Positions 1-19,354 of a DNA stretch of 64,000 nt are shown piece after piece; position 1 is the first letter of the stretch; each line of letters opens with the position of its first letter. The notes beneath the pieces are model-generated. The model was given only the letters and a program-made list of their open reading frames with translations, searched no databases and was not told the DNA's origin. Origin of the DNA: Methanomassiliicoccales archaeon (GTDB lineage Archaea > Thermoplasmatota > Thermoplasmata > Methanomassiliicoccales > UBA472); contig JAVYMA010000002.1 of NCBI GenBank assembly GCA_038740345.1, positions 34,314 to 98,313 of the forward strand. Reading direction: 5' to 3'. The translations under genes and the position numbers were made by a program.

Positions 1-1969
1 GCGTATCAAGGATGGTAGCCGCACGCACATCCCGGGGAAGTTCCAGAACGATGCGATAGGGGTCAGTATGGGTGGCCACGGCCTCTCCCAGTCTAGCGGT
101 CAAGAGCACTGATAACAGCTTTGAGAGGGTCTCATTTACTTTTGATCCGAAACAACAGTTAAGGATGGCGAGCTTCTTTCCCATTTCTAGCGTGAGCAGC
201 TCGTCCGTAGGAACTTTGCCCACTGACTTCTGCTCTTCCAAGTAACGACGCAATTTGCCAAGCGCTTCCTCGTCGCCGGGATAGTTATGATAGTCCTGCA
301 GGCGCCGTAAACGTCCTACTTCCATAGCCACATTGAAAGGCACAGGGATATCCTCGCCAACCCAGGAGGGTATTGAGCCTATCTCCTTAACTTGCTCCAC
401 TAGCAGCTCATCCTCCTTTATCTCGATAATGCGCCAGGAACGCCCCCTGGTGATAAACGTGGCATAAGGCTCAGCAAAGGAGATAACGAATGACTCATCC
501 AACTGCCCTACTATCTTCCTGGTGGAGAGATCGCGTATGCGAAAGCTCTTTTCATCAGGTATCATAGAGAGGTTGTTATAGAAATAGCGCATGCCTCTGT
601 TGGAACGTCGATATTCCTCGTTATTGATGAAGACCAGCCCTATGGAGCCTAATTGCTGGAGCACCGCTTCGAACTTCTCCCTGGTTAATGAATGAAAGGG
701 ATAGGCTCGAACTATTACGCGATAAGCATCGTCCCGGCGCACAGGACCAGACATGGCCATGGCCACCAATTGATTGGCCAGTACGGTGAGGGGGTTTTGC
801 CTAACCCTCAGAGGCTCTAACTCTTCCTTGGCCGCTTTGCGCGCGATCACTAGCGATTCAGCCACCTCATCAGGGGTAGAGGCCACGACAGCGCCCTCGG
901 ATTTAACCCCCACCCTATGACCGGCTCTTCCCATCCTTTGTATTAGCCTGGCCACTTGGCGCGGGGAATTGTACTGGATGGCGAAGTCTGCGCTGCCTAT
1001 GTCTATCCCCAGCTCAAGCGATGAGGTGCAGATCAGCCCTTTCAATCTCTCCTGCTTGAAAGCCTCCTCCATCTCTATGCGCGTCTCTTTGGATAGGGAG
1101 CCGTGATGAACACCGATGGGAAAAGTCTCGTCCCACACGTGGAAGCGTGCCGCTAGGGCCTCGGCGGTGTCTCTTGTATTAACGAAAAGGAGGGTGGATC
1201 GATGCGATTCAATTATGTCCTTGCAGCGCCTCATGCAAGCCACTAGTTGGGGATCACTCTGCAGCATCCCTGCTAGCTCCATATCCTCATCCTGCACCGT
1301 TGGGCTCTGTATTTCCACCGTCATGTCCTTAGCCACGCTTGCCTTCACTATGGTTACCTTTCTCCCCTTTCCAGCCAGATATCTAGCCACCTCTTCCACG
1401 CTTCCTATGGTAGCGGACAGGCCCACCCTCTGGAACTCACCTGACTCCTCCACAAGGCGCTCCATTGCCACCGCCAATTGCGCACCGCGCTCGTCCTCCG
1501 CCAACTCATGTATCTCGTCGATCACGAAGAAACGAACATTGGAGAGATGTTCTCTCAACCTCTTGCCTACGAACAATATTTGCAACGTCTCGGGCGTGGT
1601 TATAAGGATGTCAGGGGCTTTTCGAGACTGCCTGCTCCTTTCGCATTGAGGTGTGTCACCGTGTCTAACGGCCACGTCCAAACCTAAGGCGGTTCCGAAA
1701 TCTTCCAGCCTGCGCAGCAGATCTCTGTTAAGAGCCCGCAAAGGGGTAACATAGATGCACCTTACTCCCTTGCCGCTGTAACTGAGCAAGCGGTGAAATA
1801 TGGGAAGCATGGCGGCCTCGGTCTTTCCTATGCCCGTGGGAGCGACTAGAAGAACATTCTCTCCTTTGAGGATATGGGGTATAGCTTGACGCTGAGGGCC
1901 AGTGGGCTCGTGGATGTCCCTTTGCTTGAGCAGGATGCGGATACGCTCATCAAGAAGTTCGAAGACCAT
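1..1969 (-). CDS. Lhr-like superfamily-2 DEAD/DEAH-box helicase (N-terminal ~656 codons; gene runs off the left edge)
   Basis: Absent from the ORF track because it has no stop in the window. My minus-strand translation from the ATG at 1969..1967 gives MVFELLDERIRILLKQRDIHEPTGPQRQAIPHILKGENVLLVAPTGIGKTEAAM (Q motif + Walker A), FFVIDEIHEL (DEIH box), LSATIG, HHGSLSKETR and QRMGRAGHR. The frame is open to nt 1. Confidence 0.85.
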   Translation of the reverse strand, partial: MVFELLDERIRILLKQRDIHEPTGPQRQAIPHILKGENVLLVAPTGIGKTEAAMLPIFHRLLSYSGKGVRCIYVTPLRALNRDLLRRLEDFGTALGLDVAVRHGDTPQCERSRQSRKAPDILITTPETLQILFVGKRLREHLSNVRFFVIDEIHELAEDERGAQLAVAMERLVEESGEFQRVGLSATIGSVEEVARYLAGKGRKVTIVKASVAKDMTVEIQSPTVQDEDMELAGMLQSDPQLVACMRRCKDIIESHRSTLLFVNTRDTAEALAARFHVWDETFPIGVHHGSLSKETRIEMEEAFKQERLKGLICTSSLELGIDIGSADFAIQYNSPRQVARLIQRMGRAGHRVGVKSEGAVVASTPDEVAESLVIARKAAKEELEPLRVRQNPLTVLANQLVAMAMSGPVRRDDAYRVIVRAYPFHSLTREKFEAVLQQLGSIGLVFINNEEYRRSNRGMRYFYNNLSMIPDEKSFRIRDLSTRKIVGQLDESFVISFAEPYATFITRGRSWRIIEIKEDELLVEQVKEIGSIPSWVGEDIPVPFNVAMEVGRLRRLQDYHNYPGDEEALGKLRRYLEEQKSVGKVPTDELLTLEMGKKLAILNCCFGSKVNETLSKLLSVLLTARLGEAVATHTDPYRIVLELPRDVRAATILDT

Positions 1970-2219
1970 TCATCGCATCCAGAGTTTTGCGGTACATTAA
2001 CCTATCGGGTCGATCTAAGCACATAGCGCAATGATTTCACCATTCCATGCAAAAACATTATTCTGACCACATCAATAAATTAAGAGGATATCTTGGTGAA
2101 ACATTCGAGATGAACTCTCAGCAGCACATAACCTCTCAAGGAAACGGAAGCCCTGAACCGCATTCTCGTTGTTACGTCTCGCTATCCACGAAATTAAATC
2201 CTTTCAACGCCCACCAGTC

Positions 2220-3395
2220 TCAAGAGGGAGAGGTCGCTTGCGCCAAAAGCTCTGCAAGGTCTACCACCTTGATGTTAGAGCCAATCTGCTTCGCCCCTTG
2301 TTGGAGATTGAGTACGCAGAAGGGGCATGTAGTAACTATCATCTCTGCCCCCGTCTCCAATGCCTCCTGCACTCGCTTGGCAGCGATATTCACGGCATAA
2401 TCGTTGAATTGCGACTTGAACCCTCCACCTGCCCCACAACAATGCGAGCCCATTCGGTTGTAACGCATCTCCACCAGCTCGATGCCGGGCACGGCCTTTA
2501 TGACCTCCCGCGGCGCCTCGAAGACTCCTGCATGACGACCTAGATGGCAGGGATCATGGTAGGTGACCTTAGCTTTGATCTCCTTGGTGAACTTAACCTT
2601 CTTCTCCTTGATGAGCTTGAGGGCATACTGGGAGAAATGATAGACTTCAAAAGAGGGTCTGGAATAGAATCTCTTGTAGTCATGCAGGGTCGTTTTATAG
2701 CAACCGGCGCAAGCAGTGACCATAGCCTTGGCCCCCATGCGCTCAGTCTGGCGCACATTGTTCTCGGCCGCTTCCCTGGTAGCCTTGATTTGCCCCGTTC
2801 TTAGCATGGGCGAGGTGCAACACATCTCATTCTCTCCCATGATATTCTGTTTCACGCCGCAGCGGTCCATGAAGATCACCGCAGCCTGGGATATGCGTTG
2901 CATCCTGTAGGAGGCGGTACAACCGGCAAAGAAGCATATGTCCGGGTTCAAAGATTCCCTTTTTATGCTAGCGGGGAACCAGTCCCCCCGTTTGCTTGGA
3001 GGCTCACGGTAAGGGTTTTTATTGGCCAATATACTCTCGCCCAGCTTTTTATGAGCTGGAAGTGGGCCTTTCCCCTGTTCGACCACCCATTCTCTGACCT
3101 TCTCCCAGAACTCGGCGAACTCGATCTCGACATGGCATACTTGCCAACAGGCCGCACATCCAGTGCATTTGTATAACGCCTCAACGAACTCCTGATCGAT
3201 CTCCACCTTTCGCCCAAGTAGCTTGTCTAAAGGCGTCTTGTTCTGCAGCTGCTTAAGATAATACAGCTTTCCACGGGGGCTGTTGGATTCCCATGGCTCC
3301 TGTGCGTATGTATCGCACACGCGAACGCAATAGCCACATTGGAGACAGGCCGACAACTCTCTGTTGATGTTCGGCAACCTTGCCATGCCACGCAC
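2220..3395 (-). CDS. HdrD/GlcF/LutA-type Fe-S oxidoreductase with two CCG domains
   Basis: 391-aa ORF. Two ferredoxin-type motifs (CLQCGYCVRVC, CTGCAACWQVC) are followed by two Cys-rich CCG-type modules (CCTSP..CAGC; DPCH..CCGAGGG..CPFC). Confidence 0.8.
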   Translation of the reverse strand: MRGMARLPNINRELSACLQCGYCVRVCDTYAQEPWESNSPRGKLYYLKQLQNKTPLDKLLGRKVEIDQEFVEALYKCTGCAACWQVCHVEIEFAEFWEKVREWVVEQGKGPLPAHKKLGESILANKNPYREPPSKRGDWFPASIKRESLNPDICFFAGCTASYRMQRISQAAVIFMDRCGVKQNIMGENEMCCTSPMLRTGQIKATREAAENNVRQTERMGAKAMVTACAGCYKTTLHDYKRFYSRPSFEVYHFSQYALKLIKEKKVKFTKEIKAKVTYHDPCHLGRHAGVFEAPREVIKAVPGIELVEMRYNRMGSHCCGAGGGFKSQFNDYAVNIAAKRVQEALETGAEMIVTTCPFCVLNLQQGAKQIGSNIKVVDLAELLAQATSPS

Positions 3396-3555
3396 CTCAA
3401 ACCATTACCGCTTCAGCCGGCTGTATATGAATGCCCGCAGGGACCGGGGCAGGATTACTCTAGGCATGAAACCTAGGTATTTAGTTTTATTGACAGCCTA
3501 CTGGTAACTCTTGACCTAGTGAAATTAACGCCTTTAATTAATCTTTACGGAAATA

Positions 3556-4083
3556 TCATCCTTCAAGGATAGGCCCATATCCATACCAAGCCCCTTCAAG
3601 CTTGAGCATATGCAGGTTCTCCTCCAGAATTTCTTTATGTCTACGCTCCCATTTGACAAGCTCTTCTAAGGTAGCTCTGGTCCCATCATCCAAGCTCATT
3701 TTTAGCGCGTCTTGGTACATACGTATGGAGTTTTCCTCCACCTCAATCCCTTTCTGCAGGGCAGCGATCTCATCGCTGAGCGTCATGCATGAGCCCTTGG
3801 GCTTAACGAAGACCTTCTCCGGCAGTATCTTTAGGTATTCATCTATGGTCTCTACCTTGGTAGGATCGAGCCCCTTGGAGGCGCGCGCCATCTGGTCCGT
3901 GAGGATGCGCAAGTGCTCCCCTTCATCGTTTCCCAGGCCCCTTAACAGTGCCGAGCCCCTCTTGTCCTTTACGCACTGGCTCAACTCAGAATAAAAGCGA
4001 ATGCCAAACTCTTCGATGGCCATGGCGGTCTTGAGCACGGCCGCGCTCAGCTCTCTCTGCTCCATTCCCTCCCACGCCTTCAT
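3556..4083 (-). CDS. rubrerythrin/ferritin-like di-iron four-helix-bundle protein
   Basis: 175-aa ORF with paired E...ExxH patterns (EEFGIRFY / DEGEHLRIL and EVEENSIRMY / ERRHKEIL), typical of ferritin-like di-iron sites. Confidence 0.6.
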   Translation of the reverse strand: MKAWEGMEQRELSAAVLKTAMAIEEFGIRFYSELSQCVKDKRGSALLRGLGNDEGEHLRILTDQMARASKGLDPTKVETIDEYLKILPEKVFVKPKGSCMTLSDEIAALQKGIEVEENSIRMYQDALKMSLDDGTRATLEELVKWERRHKEILEENLHMLKLEGAWYGYGPILEG

Positions 4084-4727
4084 CCTTTCTCACTAGATAT
4101 CCGCGTGTATATTAACACGATGGCATCCTCTTGGGATTATTGCGGGAAAAACTTCATTCATACGATATCAGGACGTTCTATCGTTTCGCACAAGCCTCAA
4201 TCGCTGTTGGGATTAACTTGTAGCAAAACGGGCAAATAAAGCATGCAGGGTGAGCTCAGGGAGCTTGAATGGCCAAAGGTATGATGATTTGATGCGCGGG
4301 ATAACTGGCGTGGAAGAAGTAGAGGGAGGGAAGAAAACTCAGAGAATGGGGCTCAAGTCGCACGCATCGGGGGAGGAGGTGCAAGATGATGGCAGCTTAT
4401 TTTACCTCTTCATGTTTTTACTGGCTTCCCAAGTGATTACTGTAAGAGGGGGGGGGGGCAAGAGCTTAGGGCCATCCTTTCTGCGGAAAGGGGCGTCTGC
4501 ACACCGCACGACTTAAGATCGACCGGGTGGCTGGAATGGCAATCATTAAACCATCGAGTAACTCAGTGAGTCTGGGTTTACGAAACGCTTATATATGAGC
4601 ATGATTTTGCCAGCCGAATAGCCCGGGTCTTTACCCAACTCCAACGCCCTTCTGGACGTGGAGTCGAGTAGGCCTGAAGAGGTGACAGATAACGCTTAGC
4701 AGTTACACCTTTGCAGCGCTGATCGTC

Positions 4728-6713
4728 TTGGGAGCGGCCGCATCGCTCATCGCTCTCCTCACCGCGCGGAAGGAATCCTTCGGAGCGAAGCTGGCCTTCG
4801 CCTTGCTCACGCTCTCTGCGCTCATGGGCATCCTGACCTCTATAGAGGTACTCATCGCTGACGATCTGGTCCTGGAGATATTGGCTTTCCCCTTCCTGGG
4901 GGCTTTCCGAGTGCATATCGACGCCCTCTCCTCCTTCTTCCTGCTTGCCATCTCCATAGTCGGTCTAGCTACATCTCTTTACTCCATCGGGTATGTGCAA
5001 CATTATTCTGGCCATTATAGCTTGGCCAAGATGGGCTCCCTCCTACCCATTTTTTTCTTGTCTATGTGCTTGGTGGTGGCCGCTGGGGACGTGATTCTAT
5101 TCTTGGTGGTTTGGGAGTTGATGTCGCTCTCCTCCTATCTTCTGGTGGTGTACGAGCACCGTGACGAAGGCGTCCGTTCCTCTGGCTGGTTATACTTCGT
5201 CATGACCCATCTCGGCACCGCTTGCATCGCCGCCTGCCTACTGTTCATCTCTACATCCGCCGGTTCCACGGACTTCCGCAGCATAGCCCTCAGCTCCGGT
5301 GAAGGCATTTCAGAGCTAGCGCGCAGTTTAGCCTTCCTCCTAGCACTGGTCGGTTTCGGTACCAAGGCTGGGGTGATACCTCTGCATGTTTGGCTTCCCA
5401 AGGCACACCCATCTGCTCCTAGCAACGTCTCCGCTCTGATGTCTGGAGTCATGGTGAAAGTGGCCATCTACATGCTCATCCGTACCACTTTCCAGTTCTT
5501 GGGAGTGGCTGAAGGATGGTGGGGGCTTATGCTGTTGCTGCTGGGCAGCGTAACGGCGATGTTAGGCGTACTCTACGCTCTGGCGGAGAGAGACATCAAG
5601 CGTTCCTTGGCCTTTTCCACGGTGGAGAATGTGGGCATCATCCTCATCGCATTGGGCACTTCCTTGGTATTCTTTTCCCATGGCCAGGAGAAATTGGCTG
5701 CGCTGGCCCTTATAGCCTGCTTGTTGCATGTGCTCTTCCATTCTCTTTTCAAGTCCCTGCTGTTCCTGGGGGCAGGAGCAGTGGTGCAGGCTACATGCAC
5801 CAAGGACATGGAAAGAATGGGTGGCCTAGCTAAACGCATGCGTTATACCAGCATTTTCTTTTTAATTGGTTCTTTGTCAATCTCGGCCATCCCACCATTC
5901 AATGGCTTTGTTAGTGAGTGGCTCATATTCCAATCTCTCCTACGGTCATACACTGTAGATGATGTAACTATCAGCCTCTTGATGGCCTTGGCTCTAGGAA
6001 TGTTAGCGATGACTGGCGCTTTGGTCGGGGCGTGCTTCGTAAGGATGTATGGCTCTGTTTTCCTCGCTCGGCCGAGAAGCTCAGAGGCTGAAAAGGCGCA
6101 TGAAGTGTCTGTTACTATGATATTAGGACTGGCCCTATTGGCCGTGTTGTGCACGTTCACCGGGGTGATGAGCCCGCAACTCATCCCGCTAGCAGATACC
6201 GCTTGTCAGACGGTTTTGGATGTAAGCGTGGCTAGCGATCTTGTCAAGGGACTTAATTTTTATGTGGGAGGGGAGATGATTTCTCAAGCCTCACCCTTGA
6301 TTTTGGCCCTTTTGATGGGATTTATGATTCCCATAATATTCTTGGCAGTTCGATACATCGGCTCCACCCCTCTGCGAACACAGGCTGACACCTGGGACTG
6401 CGGAACACCTCTGAATGCCAGGAATGAGTACACCGCCACAGGCCATTCCCAGCCATTACGTCGGGTGTTCAATTCTATTCTTAGGGAGAAAAGTGAATTC
6501 TCCTTTGAATCAGCATCATCTCCCTACATGCGTAAAAGAATGGCTTTCCATGCGTCGATTCCAGACATATTCGAGCTTAAGCTGTATCGTCCTCTAGCAC
6601 AGATAATCACAGGGCTCGCCAAAAGGGCTAGCGTGATTCAAACCGGCAGCATTCAGAGATACTTGGCATACATTTTCGCAGTTCTCATACTCCTTCTCGT
6701 GAGTCTTAGGTGA
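4728..6713 (+). CDS. HyfB-like antiporter-type (NuoL/M/N family) membrane subunit of the Ehr-like complex
   Basis: 661-aa polytopic ORF. It has the antiporter-subunit motif FGTKAGVIPLHVWLPKAHPSAPS and is first in a hyf-ordered operon. The track start is TTG at 4728. In-frame hydrophobic codons continue upstream to a stop at 4683, so the true start is uncertain. Confidence 0.8.
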   Translation: MGAAASLIALLTARKESFGAKLAFALLTLSALMGILTSIEVLIADDLVLEILAFPFLGAFRVHIDALSSFFLLAISIVGLATSLYSIGYVQHYSGHYSLAKMGSLLPIFFLSMCLVVAAGDVILFLVVWELMSLSSYLLVVYEHRDEGVRSSGWLYFVMTHLGTACIAACLLFISTSAGSTDFRSIALSSGEGISELARSLAFLLALVGFGTKAGVIPLHVWLPKAHPSAPSNVSALMSGVMVKVAIYMLIRTTFQFLGVAEGWWGLMLLLLGSVTAMLGVLYALAERDIKRSLAFSTVENVGIILIALGTSLVFFSHGQEKLAALALIACLLHVLFHSLFKSLLFLGAGAVVQATCTKDMERMGGLAKRMRYTSIFFLIGSLSISAIPPFNGFVSEWLIFQSLLRSYTVDDVTISLLMALALGMLAMTGALVGACFVRMYGSVFLARPRSSEAEKAHEVSVTMILGLALLAVLCTFTGVMSPQLIPLADTACQTVLDVSVASDLVKGLNFYVGGEMISQASPLILALLMGFMIPIIFLAVRYIGSTPLRTQADTWDCGTPLNARNEYTATGHSQPLRRVFNSILREKSEFSFESASSPYMRKRMAFHASIPDIFELKLYRPLAQIITGLAKRASVIQTGSIQRYLAYIFAVLILLLVSLR

Positions 6714-7663
6714 TGCCTATGCTAGAATTTCTCTTCATATTTTTGCAAACATTGACGCTCTTGGCCCTTGCGCCACTCATCATTGGAGTCATCCGCAAAA
6801 CTAAGGCGGTGTTACAGAGTCGTAAGGGCCCACCTCTCCTTCAGCCATATTATGATTTGATAAAACTCTTCCACAAAGGCTCAGTAATATCAAAAGACGC
6901 TTCTTGGATGACTACCATAGCCCCCTTAGCTTGCCTTATCTCCATGGTGGTGGCTGCCCTCCTGGTCCCAGCATTCCTGACCACTACAGCAGGATTCATG
7001 GGGGACCTGATCGTCTTGGTCTATTTGTTCGCTAATATGCGCTTCTTCATGGCCTTGGCGGCTCTTGATGCAGGCTCTACATTTGGAGGAATGGGGAGCA
7101 GTAGGGAGATGATGGTCTCCGCCCTCATCGAACCTGCCATATTATTGGCCTTTTTTAGCATCGCTCTGCTCACAGGAACGACTTCGTTATCAATAGCATC
7201 TGGCTTGATTGTTGATTCAGGGGCTGAATTGATAGGCCCGACGTTGATTTTGGCCTTCTCCGCCTTCATCATCGCCCTGCTTGCTGAAAATTCTCGCATA
7301 CCTTTCGACAATCCTGCTACCCACCTCGAGCTAACCATGACGCATGAAGGTATGTTGCTGGAATACTCAGGAAGAGACTTGGCTTTGATGGAGTATGCCA
7401 GCATGATCAAGCTCATGTTATTCATGACCATAGCCTGGAACGCCTTCCTCCCTTGGGGAATAGCGACGGAGTTGAGAATGGGCTCATTGCTCATTGGTGC
7501 TGGGCTGTTCTTGCTGAAGGTTTTCTTGCTGGCTGTAATAATTGCTCTGATCGAATCTTCAATGGCTAAAATGAGACTGTTCAGGCAGCCCAGCCTTTTG
7601 GCAGGAGCCTTTGTGCTGGCCTTTCTCGCTGTAGTTTCCTACTTTGTGCTGGAGGCGATGTGA
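6710..7663 (+). CDS. HyfC/HycD/NuoH-like membrane subunit
   Basis: 317-aa membrane ORF. LAENSRIPFDNPATHLELTM resembles the NuoH/HycD motif AExxRxPFDxxExExEL. A GTGA overlap joins it to the upstream stop (ATG also at 6713). Confidence 0.8.
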   Translation: MMPMLEFLFIFLQTLTLLALAPLIIGVIRKTKAVLQSRKGPPLLQPYYDLIKLFHKGSVISKDASWMTTIAPLACLISMVVAALLVPAFLTTTAGFMGDLIVLVYLFANMRFFMALAALDAGSTFGGMGSSREMMVSALIEPAILLAFFSIALLTGTTSLSIASGLIVDSGAELIGPTLILAFSAFIIALLAENSRIPFDNPATHLELTMTHEGMLLEYSGRDLALMEYASMIKLMLFMTIAWNAFLPWGIATELRMGSLLIGAGLFLLKVFLLAVIIALIESSMAKMRLFRQPSLLAGAFVLAFLAVVSYFVLEAM

Positions 7664-8319
7664 TGGCTGAAATGGCTGTGAATGCAATGAATGGTCTGGC
7701 GGCCGCTGTACTACTCTCTGCTGTGCTACTGATGGCCATTGGCCGCATGCGCACTCTGGTATCGGCCTTTGCCCTGCAATCGCTCTCCCTTGGCCTATTG
7801 GCCGCTGTGGTCGGTTATACCACCGGCTATATGCACATGTTTGTGGTGGCGGTCATAACTATTGGAGTGAAAGCGCTCCTGATTCCCAGCATCCTGAACT
7901 CAGTCATGCAGCGTATCGGGGTATCAAAGGAGGTTGAGCCATCCCTGAGAGCCCCCTCATCATTGCTCATCTCAGCTGGAATGGTGGTGCTTGGATATTA
8001 CGTGGCGCAACCACTCATAGAGAAAAGTGGCAGCGTGACCGCTGGCGCCTTGGCCGTTTCCTTGGCTGTGGTGCTTATCGGCCTCTTCATCATGATTTCG
8101 CGTAGGAAAGCGATAACTCAGGTAGTGGCATTGTTGGTGACGGAGAACGGTATATTCATGGCGGCCATATCTCTTGGCTATGGCATGCCTTTGATCGTGG
8201 AGTTAGGCGTGTCGTTCGATGTTCTGGTGGCAGTGTTGATCATGGGCGTACTCGTTTTCCGCATCAATCAGACCTTCGATAGCCTTGACACGTCCTTCTT
8301 GAGGAGGTTGAGAGATTGA
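7660..8319 (+). CDS. HyfE-like small membrane subunit
   Basis: 219-aa hydrophobic ORF. Its size and position between the NuoH-like and second antiporter-like genes match E. coli hyfE. It overlaps the upstream stop by 4 nt. Confidence 0.65.
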   Translation: MMAEMAVNAMNGLAAAVLLSAVLLMAIGRMRTLVSAFALQSLSLGLLAAVVGYTTGYMHMFVVAVITIGVKALLIPSILNSVMQRIGVSKEVEPSLRAPSSLLISAGMVVLGYYVAQPLIEKSGSVTAGALAVSLAVVLIGLFIMISRRKAITQVVALLVTENGIFMAAISLGYGMPLIVELGVSFDVLVAVLIMGVLVFRINQTFDSLDTSFLRRLRD

Positions 8320-9779
8320 TGCTTCAAACCCTACTAGTCATACCTGCTGTCACTGCTTTGGCCTGCTTCCTCCTGCGTTCTCCGCGTAAGGTAGAATGGG
8401 CAAGTACTGCGGGCGCTTCCATACTGGCGGTCTACTCAGGGTTCTTGGCCTGGATGGTATTCGAACGTGGTAGCCTTTACTCGGAAATGCTCTATCTAGA
8501 TTCCTTCGGCGCCTTCGTCCTGATTATAACCGCGATAATGATCTTGGCATCCTCCCTATACTCGATAGCATACCTGCGTCACGAGATTAATGGGGGAAAG
8601 GTAGCGGAAGGCCGTCTGCGTTATTACTATTCACTTCTGCATGTATTCATCTTTACCCTTATTCTGGTGTGCATTTCGGACAATCTGGGTCTGTTGTGGA
8701 TAGCCATTGAGGCCACTACCCTGGCATCCGCATTTCTAGTAGGCTTTTACAATACGGAAGGGTCTTTAGAAGCGGCATGGAAGTATATCATGGTATGTTC
8801 TGTGGGAATAGCTCTAGCCCTCCTTGGTACCATACTTCTCTATGCCGCTTCTGTGCAGAGGTTAGGCGAGTCAACAGGATCCCTAAACTGGTCAACCATA
8901 TTCTCTATGGCGGATCAGCTCGATCCCACCTTGGTCAAACTTTCCTTCATCTTCGTCTTGATAGGGTATGGCACCAAGGTGGGCCTTGCCCCCATGCATA
9001 CTTGGCTTCCTGATGCTTATTCTCAAGCTCCCATACCGACAGCTATTCTCTCGGGCGCGCTCTCCAACTGCGCCTTGTATGCCATCTTGCGTTTTCATAT
9101 GGTGACATCCGAGGTCATAGATCCTTCCTTTTCCGGAAGCCTCCTGATGATCTTTGGCCTTCTCTCCTTGGCCGTAGCCTCGGTGTTCATAATTCTGGTG
9201 AGGGATTACCGACGCCTTCTAGCGTACAGCAGCGTGGAGCACATGGGCATAATCGCGCTAGCCTTCGGCTTCGGAGGTACCCTAGGCATAATGGGAGGGT
9301 TATTGCATATGCTCAATCACTCCCTTATCAAAAGCACCTTATTCCTAGGTGCAGGGCAGGTCTATTTGAGGGTGAAAACCAAGCTGATTGAGGAGGTGAA
9401 GGGCCTATCAGGCCTCATGCCATACACCTCTGTCATTTGGGCTACGGCCTTCTTGGCAATTATAGGTTGCCCCCCCTTTGGAATTTTTATAAGCGAGCTA
9501 ACAATACTCTACGCTGGCTTCCAAGTGGGAGAATTCCTTCCCATCGCTTTCTACCTCTTCTTCCTGGCTATCATATTCGCTGCAGTTTTGCACCATCTTA
9601 GCGGGATGGTCATGGGTGCTCCATGTGATTCAGGCTGCAAGGGTGAGTCAGGCCGAGCTAGCCTAGCGCTAATGATCATTCTTCTGGCTGCGGCCTTGCT
9701 GCTAGGCACGTACATGCCTTCACAGCTGAACGATATCCTGATGGATATTGCTAGACTATTCCCAGGGGGTAATGTATGA
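8316..9779 (+). CDS. HyfF-like antiporter-type (NuoM/N family) membrane subunit
   Basis: 487-aa polytopic ORF with GYGTKVGLAPMHTWLPDAYSQAP. It overlaps both neighbours (TTGATG at 8316-8321; ATGA at 9776-9779). Confidence 0.8.
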   Translation: MMLQTLLVIPAVTALACFLLRSPRKVEWASTAGASILAVYSGFLAWMVFERGSLYSEMLYLDSFGAFVLIITAIMILASSLYSIAYLRHEINGGKVAEGRLRYYYSLLHVFIFTLILVCISDNLGLLWIAIEATTLASAFLVGFYNTEGSLEAAWKYIMVCSVGIALALLGTILLYAASVQRLGESTGSLNWSTIFSMADQLDPTLVKLSFIFVLIGYGTKVGLAPMHTWLPDAYSQAPIPTAILSGALSNCALYAILRFHMVTSEVIDPSFSGSLLMIFGLLSLAVASVFIILVRDYRRLLAYSSVEHMGIIALAFGFGGTLGIMGGLLHMLNHSLIKSTLFLGAGQVYLRVKTKLIEEVKGLSGLMPYTSVIWATAFLAIIGCPPFGIFISELTILYAGFQVGEFLPIAFYLFFLAIIFAAVLHHLSGMVMGAPCDSGCKGESGRASLALMIILLAAALLLGTYMPSQLNDILMDIARLFPGGNV

Positions 9780-11365
9780 CCGAAAGGCGAATGATTGACA
9801 TCCTGAGCTCAATGCCTCCCGAGCTCTCTGAAGCGGTCATTTCCCGTAAGGTCAAAGGTAACGAGATTTGGATGGAGATTCCTTCTTCACTTCTTCCCCC
9901 GGTGGCATCGCACATTAAGAATCTCTGGGGGGCGCATTTAGTTACATTCCACGCTGTGGATAATCGCGCGTTGACTGGCGACTTCAAGCTCATCGTGTTG
10001 ATGGCGCTCAGCGGAGAAGACGACTTTGTCGTCTTACTTACCAGCGTGGATCCCGCTTTTCCCCAGTACCCTTCATTGACACCGCAGATACCATGTGCAG
10101 AGTGGTATGAGAGGGAGATAATGGACCTAATGGGCCTTAGGGCCAGTGGTCATCCAGAACTGAAACCGTTAGTGCTGTGGGACGATTGGCCTGAGGGCAT
10201 CTATCCATTGCGAAAAGATTTCGATCCTGCCCAAATAATCCCACAGGAGCCTCACGCCTACCCTTATCGTCGAGTGGAAGGGTCCGGCGTCTTTGAAATA
10301 CCCGTGGGCCCTGTTCACGCTGGGGTCATCGAACCGGGTCATTTCCGTTTCAGCGTCGCCGGCGAGCCGATACTGAATTTGGAGGTACGCTTGGGATACG
10401 TGCATAGAGGGGTAGAGAAACTTTCAGAGAGCACCCCTTATGCTAAGGGAGTCATGCTAGCGGAGAGGATATCTGGAGATAACGGTTTTGCCCATTCATT
10501 GGCTTATTGCCAAGCGGTAGAGTCGTTGGGGGGTGCACAGGTTCCCGAAAGAGCACTCTACCTACGAACGGCGTATGCCGAGCTGGAGCGCATTTACAAT
10601 CTCCTTGGGGATATAGGTGGGATCGCATTGGATGTGGCCTTTAATGTCGCGGCTCAACACGCTTACATTCTAAGGGAGAGGTGCATGGAGCTTAATGATT
10701 TCATAACCGGTAACCGTTTCTTGAGAGGGGTGAACCGTCTAGGGGGAGTTTGGATCGATATCCCCTCAGACAAGATTTCAAAGATCCTCGCACAGTTGGT
10801 GCGATTCAAGCTGGACATCAAGGAATTCTCATCTTTGATGTTGCGCTCGCAATCCGTACTGGATCGCTTGGAAACGACAGGAAGGATCCCTCTCGAGGTC
10901 GCCAAGGAATTAGAGTTGGTAGGGCCTGTAGCCAGGGCATCAGGGCTGGATAGGGATGTGCGGCGCGATCATCCATACGCAGCGTACCGGCATCTCAGCT
11001 TCCGTGTGCCTCTACGCCGCGAAGGTGACGTGAACGCCCGTCTTTGTGTGAAGCTAGAGGAGCTTCAAGAGAGCATTAGCTTGGTGGAGCAGGCTCTGGG
11101 CTCTTTACCTAGCGGAGAAATTACTTGCTCTTCCTTCGAGGTACCAGAAGGGCGCACGGCCATGAGCTTGGTGGAATCGCCGAGGGGTGAATTGGTGCAT
11201 TGGCTGATATCAGGAAAAGGAGGCAGGCCCTTCCGACATAAGGTGAGAGATGCCTCCTTCCACAATTGGAGAGCGATAGAAGTAGCAGTCCAAGGTGAGA
11301 TAGTTCCAGACTTCCCTTTGATCAACAAATCCCTGAACCTTTCCTATGCTGGTAACGATCTGTGA
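9776..11365 (+). CDS. HyfG/HycE-like fused NuoC-NuoD 'large subunit' lacking all four [NiFe] cysteine ligands
   Basis: 529-aa ORF. It has hydrogenase-type motifs PVGPVHAGVIEPGHFRF and GYVHRGVEKL. The N-terminal ligand motif reads ERISGDNGFAHS (Ser codon 10472-10474, Asn codon 10481-10483) instead of RxCGxCxxxH. The C-terminus reads SLNLSYAGNDL-stop (Ser 11342-11344, Gly 11351-11353) instead of DPCxxC, with no C-terminal extension. Confidence 0.85.
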   Translation: MTERRMIDILSSMPPELSEAVISRKVKGNEIWMEIPSSLLPPVASHIKNLWGAHLVTFHAVDNRALTGDFKLIVLMALSGEDDFVVLLTSVDPAFPQYPSLTPQIPCAEWYEREIMDLMGLRASGHPELKPLVLWDDWPEGIYPLRKDFDPAQIIPQEPHAYPYRRVEGSGVFEIPVGPVHAGVIEPGHFRFSVAGEPILNLEVRLGYVHRGVEKLSESTPYAKGVMLAERISGDNGFAHSLAYCQAVESLGGAQVPERALYLRTAYAELERIYNLLGDIGGIALDVAFNVAAQHAYILRERCMELNDFITGNRFLRGVNRLGGVWIDIPSDKISKILAQLVRFKLDIKEFSSLMLRSQSVLDRLETTGRIPLEVAKELELVGPVARASGLDRDVRRDHPYAAYRHLSFRVPLRREGDVNARLCVKLEELQESISLVEQALGSLPSGEITCSSFEVPEGRTAMSLVESPRGELVHWLISGKGGRPFRHKVRDASFHNWRAIEVAVQGEIVPDFPLINKSLNLSYAGNDL

Positions 11366-11374
11366 GGTGATGGT

Positions 11375-12160
11375 TTGCTAGATATAATTAGGAAAGGGGT
11401 GCTGCGCAAAGGTATAGTGACATCTGATTACCCTCAGGAAGGCACCCCGCGGTATGCAGCTCGTCTAGGTTTTCCAAAACTGAGGACAGACCTATGCAAA
11501 GCTCATCATGTTTGTTTTCGTTCTTGTCCCACAAATGCTATCCAGGAGAGAGAAGGCGAGATAAAGGTGGATCTCGGGCTCTGTATTTTTTGTGCCCAAT
11601 GTGCCCGTTCCTGTCCAGAGGGGGCCTGGACAATGAGTCCGGAAATCGAATTGGCAAAACGATCCAGGTCTGATTTGTTATCTTCCTCTTCTATTGAAAA
11701 TAAGAGTATCCAGGAGTTGGGTAAGAGCCTTGATGCCATGATTGGGAAGGTATTTGGCCGCTCTTTGGCGATTCGTGAGGTGGATACAGGATCCTGCAAC
11801 GCTTGTGAGGTAGAGGTCAACGCCTTGTCCAACGCCGTGCATGATATAGAGCGCTTCGGCATGCACATCGTAGCCAGTCCCAGGCATGCTGACCTCCTTC
11901 TAGTCACTGGTCCAGTTACCCGCAACATGGAGAGAGCCTTAATGCAGACTTACAAAGCCACTCCGGAGCCTAAGCTGGTTGTGGCTGTGGGGGCTTGCGC
12001 CTGCTCTGGAGGCATCTTCAGAGAGAGCTACGCCGTTAGAGGAGGGGTGGATCGGATGCTCCCTGTGGATGTTTACATTCCAGGTTGCCCTCCTAGACCA
12101 GAGGCGATGATATACGGCCTGATGCTAGCTGTGGGCAAATTGAATGATAAGAGTCGCTAA
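11375..12160 (+). CDS. fusion of a HyfH-like ferredoxin domain with a HyfI/HycG/NuoB-like small subunit
   Basis: 261-aa ORF. The N-terminal part has one degenerate Cys motif (CKAHHVCFRSCP) and one canonical motif (CIFCAQCARSCP). The C-terminal part has NuoB-type ligands GSCNACEVE, GACACSGG and GCPPRPE. TTG start, 4-5 nt after GAGGTGA. Confidence 0.8.
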   Translation: MLDIIRKGVLRKGIVTSDYPQEGTPRYAARLGFPKLRTDLCKAHHVCFRSCPTNAIQEREGEIKVDLGLCIFCAQCARSCPEGAWTMSPEIELAKRSRSDLLSSSSIENKSIQELGKSLDAMIGKVFGRSLAIREVDTGSCNACEVEVNALSNAVHDIERFGMHIVASPRHADLLLVTGPVTRNMERALMQTYKATPEPKLVVAVGACACSGGIFRESYAVRGGVDRMLPVDVYIPGCPPRPEAMIYGLMLAVGKLNDKSR

Positions 12161-12161
12161 T

Positions 12162-12719
12162 TCATCTGCCCCAGTCAAACTCCCTAACTTTTTCTATCCT
12201 GGAACTATCTTGCGAGATTCTCAATACTCCTATTGATATCACTCGTGCCACCATGGGTAGCTCTAAATTCTCCGAAGCAATTTGCACAGCTCTGCCTAAA
12301 CGCTCTCGTGCCACACCATCCACAATGGTTACATGTGGCGTCCAGCAATCAGGTGAGTAGCGGCGCTCAGCGGACATTTGCTGACGGTCCGCTCGATCAT
12401 AGAGGTCTTCGTGGTCCTTGAGAAGTGCAGAAGTGGGAGCGGGAGCTAGGAATATCTCTCTCAAGTCCAGAAAGACGCCCAAAGATTCCATTCTGAGTCC
12501 GAGGGGGGCCCTTTCATAGGCATAGCGGCGCAACAGGTCTAACAAGAGGGGTTCGTCCTCCACTCCCCCTAGCTTAATAAGCGTCAAGTGAGGACGCCAT
12601 CTTTGTGACTCAGGTAGAACAGCAGACAAACCCTCTTGCACCATTTTTTCTTGTAAATGGCACAGCCTTGTCTCGCTCTTCTCATCCAGATAAAGGACGA
12701 TGGCGTAGCGCATGATCAC
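12162..12719 (-). CDS. 2H phosphoesterase superfamily protein (LigT / 2'-5' RNA ligase-like)
   Basis: 185-aa ORF with the two HxT/Sx motifs of the 2H fold (RPHLTLIKLG and TPHVTIVDG). Convergent with the Ehr operon, 1-nt gap. Confidence 0.7.
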   Translation of the reverse strand: MIMRYAIVLYLDEKSETRLCHLQEKMVQEGLSAVLPESQRWRPHLTLIKLGGVEDEPLLLDLLRRYAYERAPLGLRMESLGVFLDLREIFLAPAPTSALLKDHEDLYDRADRQQMSAERRYSPDCWTPHVTIVDGVARERLGRAVQIASENLELPMVARVISIGVLRISQDSSRIEKVREFDWGR

Positions 12720-12726
12720 CCTGGGC

Positions 12727-13122
12727 TTATTTCACGACGATTACCGTGCACTTCGAGTTGCGCACGATATATTCGGACACGGAACCGATGAGAACTCTAT
12801 CGATAGCAGTTTTTCCTGACGTGCCAACAATTATAGCCTCTGCCTTTACTCGTTCAGCAGCCTCAAGTATGGCTTCGTAGGGGTTCCCTGCTTCCAACAT
12901 GGTAGTCACAGAAACACCTTCCTTAGCTGCTCTACTCTTGAGCTCTTCCAATAGACTCATACCGTGCTTTATGAGCCGCTCTTTGTCATCCTCAGCCCTT
13001 GGGCTTACAACATGGACTATGAATAGGTTCGCCTTCCTTAGGGAGGCGTAATCCAAGGCATAACGCACAGCCTTTTCAGAATGTGGCTTTCCATCGGTCG
13101 CCAGCAATATATTCATCTGCAC
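12727..13122 (-). CDS. universal stress protein (UspA family)
   Basis: 131-aa ORF. ILLATDG..., VHVV... and the C-terminal IIVGTSGKTAIDRVLIGSVSEYIVRNSKCTVIVV are typical of the Usp ATP-binding fold. Confidence 0.8.
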   Translation of the reverse strand: MQMNILLATDGKPHSEKAVRYALDYASLRKANLFIVHVVSPRAEDDKERLIKHGMSLLEELKSRAAKEGVSVTTMLEAGNPYEAILEAAERVKAEAIIVGTSGKTAIDRVLIGSVSEYIVRNSKCTVIVVK

Positions 13123-13179: not shown

Positions 13180-13767
13180 TCAAAGCAGGGTTATCCATCC
13201 ATCTTGGCAGATCAAAGGGATTTTTAGTTTTAACTCAAGCGAAGACCCGGAGGACAACATGAAATACAGAAACACTTCTTCGTAGGAGGTCAAGGCGAGG
13301 TGTTTATCTTCATTTGTAATCGTGATTTTTATAATATCCAATGGCCCAAGCACATGGCGCTCGTTCCATAGGGTGCTAACGTTAGACCTGCTCATGACCA
13401 TTTCACACATGTATGTGTTTTTTGATGTGTAACTTGGGCTGAAGAGCAATTCGAAACGTCCGTCATCGTTAAGAAATAAGATAACTACCTCCTCCATAGC
13501 TATTTCAGGGCTACCAGGCTGTAATTTCATATAGAGTTCTATTCGATCTACGAGCCCGTCCTGTACATGTCCCAGAGCCTGGATGGGCCAAAGCCCCGTG
13601 GAAATCTCCATGAGGGCATCAAGCGCTGCAGCGTTGGCCTGGACCTGAGCTTCGTTAGTTTGGTCGATCACCAAGCTGGCGGCGCCAGTGGCGGTGAGCA
13701 TTATGGTGATAAAAAGCACTGTTGTGCCTGCACCCACCTCCCCTTTTTGGTCCCTCCAAAGTTTCAT
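13180..13767 (-). CDS. archaellin/type IV pilin-like protein with class III signal peptide
   Basis: 195-aa ORF. The N-terminus KGEVGAGTTVLFITIMLTATGAASLVI resembles the archaellin consensus (K/R)G(Q/E)VGIGTLIVFIAMVLVAA. No other arl/fla genes are nearby. Confidence 0.55.
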   Translation of the reverse strand: MKLWRDQKGEVGAGTTVLFITIMLTATGAASLVIDQTNEAQVQANAAALDALMEISTGLWPIQALGHVQDGLVDRIELYMKLQPGSPEIAMEEVVILFLNDDGRFELLFSPSYTSKNTYMCEMVMSRSNVSTLWNERHVLGPLDIIKITITNEDKHLALTSYEEVFLYFMLSSGSSLELKLKIPLICQDGWITLL

Positions 13768-14362
13768 CCACTTAATACCCCTTGATGTTCAATCAGCATC
13801 GAAAACGGTTTGAATGAGTATTATCTAAAGATATTATCAAATTATGCATTCACCTTTCTTTTTAATATCTTCACATTATCTAAAATGATAATACTTAATG
13901 AAAGAGCTGTGCAATAAATCCAGGAAATTAATTCTCGAATTAGATTTGAGTGCACGAATTATCATCGTGAAAAACCGAAAATGATTATCATTTCAGATTT
14001 TGGCTGTTGATAATAATTTTAAGAAAGAATCACCCGCTCATTAAAAGATAAAATCAAAGACCTCAGCATGGGGCTCCAAGCCCTCATACAACTTACCCTG
14101 GTGCTGAATAATTAGTTCTCAAGCCTATCTGGATCATGGTGCAACATCTCTAAGGTTTGTCACCTGTCTATTTTCGTCTAGAACATTTTTAAAGAAATGC
14201 AGTCAGCATTCAATGTTTTACTTATCATCATCGTGCCTGCCTGTCATCAAGAATTACATAGCACCCTACCAACATGAAAATAACATTAGATGAAATGTTG
14301 ATAGTGTCGAGGGCAGAAGGTATTATGTTCTCGTCGAGTACTAAAATATAACGTGATGCAAA

Positions 14363-14701
14363 ATGGGCATGGAGTTGTCGCTGGAGAGAAAGAAGCAGTT
14401 GGAGGAGATCGTGGATAAAATGAATACAGAGGCAGAGATGGCTTTATTCTATCCAGAAGGAACTCCTGAGCACGATAGGCATCTACGGACGCTTTTAGCT
14501 TACAAAGAGAAAATCCAGAAAATGGAAGAACATGAGCGCACTTTCGTCGAGAGCGGCCTGATTGATCGCAGAGATATCCACGATTTTTATTGGCCCGAAT
14601 TGGAAGCTCAAAGCCCAGATGTGAAAGGGAAGAGAGCGCGATTATACTCTGAGGGCAAGATAGATTCTGACGAGCATTATAGGATAGATGGGGTAAGATG
14701 A
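14363..14701 (+). CDS. hypothetical charged/helical protein
   Basis: 112-aa ORF with protein-like composition. The overlapping 193-aa minus-strand ORF looks random. No family recognised. Confidence 0.4.
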   Translation: MGMELSLERKKQLEEIVDKMNTEAEMALFYPEGTPEHDRHLRTLLAYKEKIQKMEEHERTFVESGLIDRRDIHDFYWPELEAQSPDVKGKRARLYSEGKIDSDEHYRIDGVR

Positions 14702-14769
14702 AAGAATTGCCTATATTGACCAATGGCCGATAGCCGGTCTTAATTCGATATTCTTGGCCTAAAACGTGC

Positions 14770-15300
14770 TCAGGCATCCTTTCCCAATCTTTTTGAATAA
14801 TATATGACGTGCATATCAGCCACATACCCCGCTCTTTCGAGCAGTTTTCGAGACCTCTCGTTATCACAGTTCACCAGGGCAGAAAAAATCCGTAAACCCT
14901 TCCTTTCGAGCCTGCATTCAAACTCTCGCAAAAGGGCCAGTGCAACTCCCTTACCTTGCCATTCTGGATGAATAGCAAGACGATTGATCCAACCCTTGCG
15001 GCCATCCGTTGTTCCGAGCAAGGAGTCGATTATTCTCCCTTTTGATTCAGCCACGAGGAATGATGCCATGGGAGTGCGCAGCTCTTCTTCGATATGCCTC
15101 CTGCTATCTCTTCCATCGGCATTAAAAGGAAATCCCGCCAATCGCCAAAGATGAACCAGCGCATCATAATCCTCAGCTTTCATATCCCTAATTATCAATG
15201 TCTCTTCAGGTCCCATATCATCTATTATTGTCATTACATGTATGACAAATATATCGGTAGCGCTAGGTTTAGAGGAGGATATCCTTAGGAAATGAGACAC
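14770..15300 (-). CDS. GNAT family N-acetyltransferase
   Basis: 176-aa ORF. WINRLAIHPEWQGKGVALALLREFE matches the acetyl-CoA-binding motif A (Q/RxxGxG/A). The start may be the internal ATG at 15234 (MTIIDD...). Confidence 0.75.
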   Translation of the reverse strand: MSHFLRISSSKPSATDIFVIHVMTIIDDMGPEETLIIRDMKAEDYDALVHLWRLAGFPFNADGRDSRRHIEEELRTPMASFLVAESKGRIIDSLLGTTDGRKGWINRLAIHPEWQGKGVALALLREFECRLERKGLRIFSALVNCDNERSRKLLERAGYVADMHVIYYSKRLGKDA

Positions 15301-15473
15301 TAAGAAAGATACTTTTGAGTCCTATGTGTAATAAAGCCTCATTAAAGTAATCGCGTTTCATTTGCGTGTTGAGAGAATATCCCTTCGCGCAATAGTCAGA
15401 GAGAGAAATAGGAGCGAGCCCAGCCAAGCAGGTGGGCAAAGGAGGAACTAGGAGGGGGGTTGGGGATTCTAAG

Positions 15474-16268: not shown

Positions 16269-16344
16269 CGTTTTTCCGGCTTCTAGGTTAAATTTGTATT
16301 CAAACGTCTAGTATATATTATGCTGATGGCCAGGTATGATTGCT

Positions 16345-16363
16345 GATAATGATAATTGATAAT
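16345..16363. promoter_or_regulatory. three consecutive GATAAT hexamers (Fur-box-like array)
   Basis: GATAATGATAATTGATAAT read directly from the sequence. Its first 12 nt are identical to the first 12 nt of the classical Fur-box consensus GATAATGATAATCATTATC. Confidence 0.3.
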
Positions 16364-17636: not shown

Positions 17637-17726
17637 CTATCTCCATGGAAGGTCATGATATTTTTTTATCATTATGCCTTCTTGATAACCCTGAAATAGA
17701 GCCAGAGATAATAACCATATGGTACC

Positions 17727-19217: not shown

Positions 19218-19354
19218 ATTTATATCCCTAGGCGAGAACGGATATCATCACACCTTTCAGTATTGTCCCCTAGAGCTTAGCCACCCCTAGATAAATCATT
19301 AATATTCATATATACGTCCTATAAAGGCTGGGGGCCTGGCGTATAGCGTCAACT

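Follow-up and report, generated by a model that had tools for sequence, protein, structure and literature searches.

Energy-converting hydrogenase-related (Ehr) complexes were reportedly first noted in Geobacter sulfurreducens by Coppi in 2005. They are widespread relatives of complex I and of membrane-bound hydrogenases, and models for the evolution of redox-driven ion pumps have a gap where they belong. Ehr was reportedly defined by Marreiros et al. 2013, and the definition in the literature is taken from PMC6349859, PMC5037454 and PMC6147122; HydDB excludes Ehr from the hydrogenases as a homologue without H2 metabolism (PMC5037454). Earlier literature discusses the complexes for Margulisbacteria, Geobacter, ammonia-oxidizing archaea and comammox Nitrospira, and the Methanomassiliicoccales genome 'MALP' has been reported to contain an 'ehr' complex whose function is unknown (Speth & Orphan 2018, PMC6147122). 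Here we describe an operon at positions 4728–12160 of a 64,000-nt stretch of a Methanomassiliicoccales archaeon contig, JAVYMA010000002.1 (the whole stretch is called the window, and coordinates are relative to it). An initial annotation had assigned this operon to the Ehr complexes and remarked that their function has not been established, in agreement with PMC6147122, PMC7894505 and PMC10432482, where it is still called unknown.

Our analysis supports the assignment: the operon is group-4-like, its large subunit is closest to HycE by both sequence and fold and has lost its Cys ligands, and the NuoB-like partner has kept its own. The operon very probably encodes an Ehr-type membrane complex, with the architecture of a hydrogenase-derived, probably ferredoxin-linked, ion-translocating oxidoreductase without H2 chemistry. 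Since the [NiFe] centre is replaced by a conserved polar pocket, the complex cannot make or use H2 by known chemistry. Ehr is already known in Methanomassiliicoccales, and the locus is a correct identification of a further member. Among the energy-metabolism papers on this order that we read, only Speth & Orphan 2018 mention an Ehr complex. The details added here are modest: an Asp in an SGD motif at the former metal site, a kept proton relay, short-tailed Cys-containing sister enzymes, a Cys-to-His replacement in a ferredoxin domain, a HyfH–HyfI fusion, and linkage to hdrD together with expression in a culturable relative. The locus alone does not close the functional gap; what it documents for the archaeal Ehr branch is strong constraint, with the whole coupling apparatus kept.

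Relation to described complexes

The locus shares with described Ehr complexes the group-4-like operon, a large subunit without Ni/Fe-binding Cys and a NuoB-like small subunit with its cluster, as well as NuoH-like, HyfE-like and two antiporter-like subunits, a set that corresponds to the EhrA/B/C/D/L/S naming (PMC7894505). It differs in the fusion of the HyfH- and NuoB-like subunits, found in the window and in Methanocella, and in the replacement of one Fe–S Cys by His in the window.

The closest solved relative of the large subunit, and of the HycC-like and HycG-like subunits, is found in the group 4a enzymes of Escherichia coli, hydrogenase-3 (Hyd-3, HycBCDEFG, 7Z0S) and hydrogenase-4 (Hyd-4, HyfA–J). 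The B-C-E-F-G-H-I gene order and the NuoC–NuoD fusion are common to these systems and the window, and the large subunit keeps the Glu of the beta1–beta2 loop, the canopy Arg and the R395/E437 relay of Hyd-3. In contrast to both enzymes, it has no [NiFe] Cys, an Asn in place of the canopy Asp and neither C-terminal extension nor HycI-type processing, and the operon has no HycB/HyfA, FdhF or HyfD. Another difference concerns the HyfB-like subunit, which keeps a Lys in transmembrane helix 7 (TM7) that is missing from HycC.

Organization of the operon

Six open reading frames (ORFs) of 661, 317, 219, 487, 529 and 261 amino acids (aa), all on the plus strand, make up the operon, with coordinates exactly as initially annotated, and Pfam and NCBIfam assignments confirm the order hyfB-C-E-F-G-(H+I) that had been proposed for them: HyfB-, HyfC/NuoH-, HyfE-, HyfF- and HycE/HyfG-like subunits, then a fused HyfH+HyfI-like protein. 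The first gene (4728–6713) encodes a HyfB/HycC-like antiporter-type membrane subunit with a C-terminal ND3-like extension; it matches NCBIfam NF005086 'hydrogenase 4 subunit B' at 681.8 bits, above the cut-off of 667, and has HycC as its top PDB match (7z0s_C, 9.7e-77). It is followed by a HyfC/HycD/NuoH-like membrane subunit (6710–7663; Pfam PF00146 NADHdh, 7e-43), whose start overlaps the preceding gene at a GTGATG junction, and by a HyfE-like small membrane subunit (7660–8319), which matches NF008556 'hydrogenase 4 membrane subunit' below the cut-off (4.4e-30) and, weakly, the Pfam NuoK family. The fourth gene (8316–9779) encodes a HyfF-like second antiporter-type subunit that reaches at most 492.9 bits with HyfF models, below cut-off, and has MbsH as its top PDB match (6u8y_H, 2.9e-39). 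PF00361 is accordingly found twice in the operon, once for each antiporter-like subunit. The NuoC+NuoD-fused HycE/HyfG-like large subunit without [NiFe] ligands comes fifth (9776–11365; PF00346, PF00329 and alignment to HycE). In the last gene, a HyfH/HycF-like 2x[4Fe-4S] ferredoxin domain (11375–11700; Pfam Fer4; HycF 7z0s_F, 1.8e-10) is fused to a HyfI/HycG/NuoB-like domain (11700–12160; Pfam PF01058, 3.2e-35) that matches MbhJ (1.5e-43) and HycG (2.3e-43) in the PDB with its Cys in register. The operon has no HyfD, and Pfam detected no HyfA/HycB or formate dehydrogenase in it or in the scanned ORFs of the window.

The first four gene junctions read GTGA, GTGA, TTGA and ATGA, as expected from the 4-nt overlaps initially described. 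Three of them run on as GTG-ATG or TTG-ATG, and the true starts may be the ATG one codon inward, in which case these three overlaps would shrink to a single nucleotide (TGATG); the genes are coupled either way. At the last junction the TGA stop of the large subunit and the TTG start of the fusion gene lie in the same frame, three codons apart (11363–11377, TGA GGT GAT GGT TTG), and read-through would yield one giant NuoC–NuoD–HyfH–NuoB polypeptide. The nearest metagenome-assembled genome (MAG), here L001, has a 4-nt overlap in another frame at this place. Selenocysteine insertion and read-through were both ruled out, as the TGA aligns with no ligand position and the same-frame layout is absent in L001; the large-subunit gene contains no in-frame TGA able to encode selenocysteine at a ligand position.

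The former [NiFe] site

A phmmer search of the 529-aa large subunit against all PDB chains gave E. coli HycE (7z0s_E) as the best match (E = 4e-87, 296 bits, 31% identity), well ahead of NuoCD, Nqo4, MbhL and MbsL, and residues were mapped through the HMMER alignment to HycE. The numbering of chain 7z0s_E is offset by 12 from the native one (internal His tag), and was checked against the residues named in PMC9474812. In this alignment ERISGDNGFAHS lies under HycE DRVCGICGFAHS at the N-terminal motif and SLNLSYAGN under SLDPCYSCT at the C-terminal one, with S233, N236, S523 and G526 in the places of HycE C241, C244, C531 and C534. The former N-terminal CxxC motif (C241-G-I-C244 in HycE) is now S233-G234-D235-N236 (10472–10483, plus strand), and the former DPCxxC motif (D529-P-C531-Y-S-C534) is now N521-L-S523-Y-A-G526-N-D-L-stop (11336–11365, plus strand), so that neither of the four-Cys group 4 motifs, RxCGxCxxxH (L1) and DPCxxC (L2), is found. 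The codons at the four positions are TCT (10472–10474), AAC (10481–10483), TCC (11342–11344) and GGT (11351–11353), and at least five nucleotide changes in total separate them from Cys codons. Where the initial annotation had relied on a manual alignment, the HMMER alignment to HycE thus places no Cys at any ligand position and upholds both the loss of all four [NiFe] Cys and the codon coordinates given for it. The protein ends three residues past the last ligand position, with N-D-L-stop and without a HycI-type extension, as had also been noted. However, losing the metal site does not account for the missing extension: those relatives that are nearest among the Cys-containing ones are equally short, so the short C-terminus is ancestral and not a result of Cys loss.

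All 120 best matches in a search of 5.8 billion proteins, which we call the close homologues, lack the four [NiFe] Cys. They share the motifs ER[IV]SGD(N/S/T)xxAH[SA] and KSFNLSY[SA]GNDL-stop, and come from Methanomassiliicoccales, Methanocella arvoryzae, ANME-2 and Lokiarchaeia. Residues S233, G234, D235, H240, S523, Y524, G526 and D528 are invariant across them, the S, G and D of the first motif being present in 119–120 of 120. The functional residues of HycE were taken from the structure paper of the formate hydrogenlyase (FHL; PMC9474812), and most have been retained here: of the beta1–beta2 loop, H188 and E193 correspond to H181 and E186 (120/120 each), the relay residues R395 and E437 to R387 (120/120) and E429 (119/120), and the canopy Arg R478 to R470 (117/120). 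The canopy Asp D529 is replaced by N521, a position that is Asn or Ser in the close homologues. The conserved remodelled pocket with its new Asp offers targets for mutagenesis.

The fold agrees with the alignment. An AlphaFold2 model of the large subunit, built with 55 homologues, has a predicted local distance difference test (pLDDT) score of 87.5 and a predicted template modelling (pTM) score of 0.91, and is less confident only at the beta1–beta2 loop (177–197) and in the last three residues; in solved relatives this loop contacts partner subunits. Foldseek ranked HycE (7z0s_E) first in the PDB, with TM-scores of 0.91/0.90, followed by the NuoCD proteins of E. coli and Aquifex at about 0.8, and found no structure closer than HycE among PDB entries up to April 2026.

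Retained Fe–S ligands and antiporter residues

The NuoB-like domain retains GSC141-NAC144, GAC208 and GC238PP in the register of HycG and MbhJ, and C141, C144, C208 and C238 are invariant in six lineages, which confirms that the four Cys of the proximal [4Fe-4S] cluster have been kept, as initially proposed. In the ferredoxin domain the second motif is intact (C70-x2-C73-x2-C76-x3-C80P), and the first reads C41-KA-H44-HV-C47-FRS-C51P (11495–11527), its second Cys being now His. This His44 is common only to the window and L001 (C-RL-H-RT-C), while other lineages have Cys, and suggests that the cluster may be ligated by three Cys and one His, or otherwise altered, in this sub-clade. The HyfB-like subunit carries both the TM5 Glu (VVWELMSL) and the TM7 Lys (GFGTKAG), a position at which HycC has Leu208, and the Cys of its ND3 loop (TWDCGTP) aligns with HycC Cys537. 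The TM5 Glu and TM7 Lys (GYGTKVG) are also both there in the HyfF-like subunit. Judged by these retained ligands and residues, electron wire, coupling loops and pumping modules would all seem to be in working order, and the exchange is confined to the catalytic metal site.

Selection, expression and the possibility of an artefact

The best genome match to the operon is L001, a MAG from Methanomassiliicoccaceae, at 70% identity; the scan of genome contigs used a single protein as query and returned this one locus, and the other gene contexts discussed below come from contigs that encode homologues. Compared with L001, all six genes have proportions of nonsynonymous differences (pN) of 0.20–0.29 and of synonymous differences (pS) of 0.73–0.79, the latter saturated, and by this measure all are under purifying selection. 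The large subunit of the cultured Methanomassiliicoccus luminyensis is 58% identical to the window protein. RNA-seq of M. luminyensis CZDD1 (bioRxiv 10.1101/2024.03.29.587405, Dataset S2) shows the orthologues WYS_RS12245–12265 at about 19–275 fragments per kilobase per million (FPKM), with transcripts 2.2–2.6-fold higher in co-culture than in H2 culture.

These data bear on the one explanation that contradicts the Ehr assignment, namely that the locus encodes a genuine but unconventional hydrogenase, or that the missing ligands are a sequencing or assembly artefact or the mark of a decaying pseudogene. Hydrogenase-like context and faint PF00374 matches in some homologues are all that speaks for it. 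Assembly error and pseudogene are excluded by the conservation in 120/120 homologues, by pN far below pS, by the distance of the codons from Cys codons and by transcription in M. luminyensis, and to these the intact frames and the absence of a selenocysteine TGA can be added. The replacements also recur in independent assemblies, including the complete genomes of M. luminyensis and Methanocella arvoryzae, so that the check for assembly errors proposed in the initial annotation came out negative. Taken together we regard this explanation as refuted, to the extent that sequence data allow, and as extremely improbable. It should be noted that automatic annotation gives these genes various names, among them 'NADH-quinone oxidoreductase subunit C', 'formate hydrogenlyase subunit 5', 'hydrogenase large subunit' and 'Ni,Fe-hydrogenase III large subunit'; in methane-cycle genomics they should not be counted as H2-evolving enzymes.

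Evolutionary placement

A HMMER scan of 1.84 billion cluster representatives gave 11,167 matches at E <= 1e-3, 1,263 of them at E <= 1e-30. Among the best 150 representatives (50%-identity clusters) the Cys-less proteins number about 95; another 23 combine the full set of four Cys with a short C-terminus (…NKSFELCYxCxDR-stop), and 8 are of the HycE type, with DPCxxC and an extension of 16–36 residues. Asp235, which lies between two former Cys positions, occurs in 119/120 of the close homologues and 74/95 of the wider set of Cys-less representatives, while Cys-containing relatives carry Ala, Val or Ile there. In a neighbour-joining tree of the NuoD-like part, rooted on a HycE-type sequence and rough in that it carries no support values, almost all Cys-less proteins fall into one clade beside the short-tailed Cys-containing enzymes; one sequence with a CCCA pattern is nested inside this clade. 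The pattern suggests that the metal site was lost once, long ago, in a hydrogenase subgroup whose members already had no protease-processed tail.

The short-tailed Cys-containing relatives resemble the window protein closely: they are 38–47% identical to its large subunit, end in NKSF-L-Y--D[LR] three residues past the last ligand position, and have the beta1–beta2 loop GPxHAGxIEPGHFRF. They differ in keeping the four Cys (ERxCGxC), in a hydrophobic residue at Asp235 and in Glu at Asn521. Possibly they represent HydDB group 4f. The initial annotation had repeated the view of Ehr complexes as intermediates between group-4 hydrogenases and complex I. Our rough tree offers no obvious fit for this, since it shows the present family branching, in a derived position, beside the short-tailed group-4 enzymes that contain Cys. 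The name Ehr may denote a grade made up of several clades.

Proposed mechanism and candidate acceptors

The most likely mechanism for such a complex has four steps. A low-potential carrier, most plausibly ferredoxin, would trade electrons with the HyfH-like 2x[4Fe-4S] domain, from which they would pass to the proximal [4Fe-4S] cluster of the NuoB-like domain. Changes in redox state and protonation would then arise at the interface between cluster and pocket, formed by Glu186/His181 of the beta1–beta2 loop, Asp235, Ser233/Ser523 and the Arg470–Glu429–Arg387 relay. The conserved loops would finally pass these changes to the HyfB-like and HyfF-like antiporter subunits, which would move H+ or Na+.

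Several observations weigh against this scheme. The choice of ferredoxin as donor is inferred by analogy with 'headless' group-4 complexes and Fpo-like complexes. The remodelled pocket shows no evident redox-active residue or cofactor site, which leaves the exit of electrons unexplained. The equivalent of HycE His284 on the proton path, His in 76/120 close homologues, is Leu in 44/120, the window protein (L276) among them. In M. luminyensis, Ehr transcripts are roughly 5–10 times below those of the Fpo-like complex, so in those cultures Ehr does not serve as the principal site of coupling. Finally, biochemical data or a structure were found for no Ehr complex in the literature searched.

Three proposals for the electron acceptor fit within the Ehr assignment and do not compete with it. 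One of them takes the Pyrococcus furiosus MBS (Mbx, 6U8Y) as its model: a small soluble acceptor, such as polysulfide, a disulfide or another oxidant, would be reduced at the proximal cluster through the emptied metal-site cavity. MBS couples ferredoxin oxidation to ion translocation and is the best functional analogy. It is the one characterised group-4 descendant without H2 chemistry that is still an ion-translocating oxidoreductase, its MbsL and MbsH show detectable similarity to the window proteins, and the surroundings of the operon are rich in thiol and oxidative-stress genes (rubrerythrin, a universal stress protein and a peroxiredoxin at 20204–20680). However, MbsL is more distant than HycE (148 bits) and has another replacement motif at the former metal site, RICVPEPD; MBS has an Mrp-type multi-subunit arm where the window operon has a Hyf-type membrane set; the NuoB-like subunit retains all four canonical Cys; and the operon contains no sulfur-metabolism genes. 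We therefore consider an acceptor of this kind quite unlikely.

Equally doubtful is a mechanism as in complex I or the Fpo-like complex, in which the proximal cluster would reduce a membrane-soluble carrier, a lipid resembling methanophenazine or quinone, bound in the pocket. The core is homologous, coupling loops and antiporter residues are conserved, and the NuoH-, NuoB- and NuoD-like trio that forms the quinone chamber of complex I is present in the operon; moreover, genes for a liposoluble carrier have been reported in Methanomassiliicoccales (PMC4153887). The best NCBIfam matches of the large subunit are indeed NuoD and FpoD families, but every one lies far under its cut-off (NF004739, 259 versus 360; FpoD NF040602, 209 versus 600), and HycE is far closer than any NuoD, with 296 versus 186–199 bits and TM-scores of 0.91 versus about 0.8. 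Both hallmark quinone ligands are gone: in the alignment to 2fug_4, Nqo4 Tyr87 corresponds to the invariant Gly234 and His38 to the hydrogenase-type Ile185/Glu186. The operon also differs from complex I and Fpo in having no NuoA, J, K set or N-module and only two antiporter-like subunits.

The third candidate comes from the gene neighbourhood. Upstream of the operon and divergent from it lie a 175-aa rubrerythrin/ferritin-like gene (3556–4083, minus strand; Pfam PF02915, 3.3e-11) and, beyond it, the gene of a 391-aa HdrD-type protein with 2x[4Fe-4S] and two CCG domains (2220–3395, minus strand; Pfam CCG 1.5e-34 and Fer4). HdrD is the catalytic subunit of heterodisulfide reductase, and on synteny this divergently encoded protein is the best contextual candidate for a redox partner of Ehr in Methanomassiliicoccales. 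The two could form an energy-converting ferredoxin:CoM-S-S-CoB oxidoreductase, parallel to or instead of the pair of Fpo-like complex and HdrD, with HdrD docked either near the pocket or on the peripheral arm, in the way that HycB sits on HycF in FHL. The order HdrD, rubrerythrin and, divergently, Ehr is found in 7/7 Methanomassiliicoccales loci with 57–70% large-subunit identity, at times with a major facilitator superfamily or ATP-binding cassette transporter inserted. The window HdrD is 66% identical to M. luminyensis HdrD1 and 85% identical to its L001 counterpart, above every Ehr subunit. The corresponding neighbour in M. luminyensis, WYS_RS12230/WP_019178460, is the HdrD of the ferredoxin:heterodisulfide model (PMC7374477, Table 1; hdrD1 of PMC4153887), and hdrD, fpo and Ehr genes of this organism shift in the same way between H2 culture and co-culture. 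Membrane ferredoxin:heterodisulfide activity was measured on whole membranes (reviewed in PMC7374477), and is therefore not tied to one complex.

There is also much that argues against a partnership with HdrD. HdrD does not adjoin Ehr at the Methanocella, Lokiarchaeia and ANME-2 loci, and because HNH, DUF362, Lon and radical SAM genes are syntenic as well, the adjacency may merely be inherited gene order. 'Ca. M. alvus' is reported to have hdrD and no energy-converting hydrogenase, and the hdrD1 and echA1 accessions of 'Ca. M. intestinalis' are consecutive (both from PMC4153887). HdrD transcripts of M. luminyensis are several times above those of Ehr, and an electron path from ferredoxin over HyfH to HdrD would bypass the coupling site. 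On balance an Ehr–HdrD oxidoreductase is a tentative proposal, more probable than the lipid or the small soluble acceptor and still unlikely. Somewhat less probable again is its fullest form: that in free-living Methanomassiliicoccales Ehr, and not only the Fpo-like complex, partners HdrD as a second ion-translocating ferredoxin:heterodisulfide oxidoreductase, in which the remodelled pocket, with the invariant Asp235, Ser233/Ser523 and the loop residue Glu186, would serve as the proton- or ion-coupling element and would respond to redox changes of the proximal cluster. If true, the partnership would be the first physiological function for any Ehr complex, and the accepted scheme of energy conservation in this order of methanogens would have to be revised. 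M. luminyensis is a practical system for work on Ehr function, because this cultured methanogen has an orthologous, transcribed copy adjoining an HdrD gene that is central to its bioenergetics.

Gene neighbourhood

The rubrerythrin–HdrD unit and the Ehr operon are separated by a divergent intergenic region of 644 bp (4084–4727), as read from the sequence. It contains TATA-like boxes at 4590–4595 and 4108–4115, for which a promoter role is inferred, and a run of 11 G at 4448–4458, which could be a slippage-prone or regulatory element or else a point of assembly uncertainty. Downstream of the operon are a 2'-5' RNA-ligase-like gene and the convergent gene of a 131-aa universal stress protein (Usp; 12727–13122, minus strand; Pfam PF00582, 2.3e-32). 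Usp adjoins the Ehr operon in every Methanomassiliicoccales locus with Pfam-annotated gene calls and is the sole neighbour kept beyond the order, in Methanocella arvoryzae and on the ANME-2 contig; it is absent at the Lokiarchaeia locus, and no partner gene was found to be conserved across all examined lineages.

The accessions of M. luminyensis are WP_019178467 for the large subunit and WP_019178471 for EchA1; the tags run from WYS_RS12230 (Fe–S protein) over 12235/12240 (ferritin-like) and 12245–12265 (Ehr) to 12280 (Usp) and Ech (Dataset S2). A bona fide Ech hydrogenase operon (echA–F, with a PF00374-positive large subunit) follows directly after Ehr and Usp there (locus L002, 13195–18348), which puts Cys-less and Cys-containing complexes side by side; in the window no Ech genes lie at this place. 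We found no literature that identifies the Ehr genes of M. luminyensis by their tags or accessions, as is done for hdrD. In Methanocella arvoryzae (locus L004), frhADGB, with an F420-reducing hydrogenase and a HycI-like protease, lies upstream of Ehr (979–4357), and the formate transporter gene fdhC, an F420-type fdhAB and a carbonic anhydrase gene lie downstream (13486–17756), with fdhAB about 2 kb off. A conserved link of Ehr to formate dehydrogenase or F420 was rejected, as it is seen in Methanocella and absent from the other lineages examined. On one further Methanomassiliicoccales contig (L011, 1–659) the HdrD-like gene was predicted in two pieces, a Fer4 part of 161 aa and a separate CCG part, which could reflect a frameshift, a split gene or an assembly error.

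Other genes in the window

In keeping with the initial statement that the window holds no hyp or hycI genes, Pfam found no such domains in 30 of the ORFs outside the operon (the 24 that lie beyond position 21000 and reach at least 200 aa, less those at 58574–59410 and 59807–60568, plus eight flanking the operon), a set that leaves aside four ORFs of 176–281 aa at 14770–20200 and all small ORFs, so that small Hyp proteins could be missed. This absence says little, since 64 kb represents only a small fraction of a genome, and it is uninformative in any event, as organisms of this kind encode Mvh, and often Ech too, at other genomic sites.

Oxidative-stress genes are plentiful in the window: besides the rubrerythrin and the separate peroxiredoxin (20204–20680, minus strand), there are two tandem AhpC/TSA + Thioredoxin_10 proteins (54968–56858, plus strand) and a fragment of a thioredoxin-domain/FAD oxidoreductase (32521–33399). 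A 458-aa protein (29997–31373, plus strand) combines a ferric-reductase-like transmembrane domain with FAD- and NAD-binding domains, a NOX/FRE-type architecture that is unusual for a strictly anaerobic, cytochrome-free order of methanogens. A homologue of the SOUL haem-binding family (22864–23481, minus strand; PF04832, 3.5e-39) likewise occurs in an order reported to be without cytochromes. A 485-aa ORF (60552–62009, plus strand) has no Pfam match at E <= 1e-3, and a 1086-aa clostripain-family (C11) protease with PPC and fibronectin-III domains (41188–44448, plus strand) is probably secreted or exposed at the cell surface.

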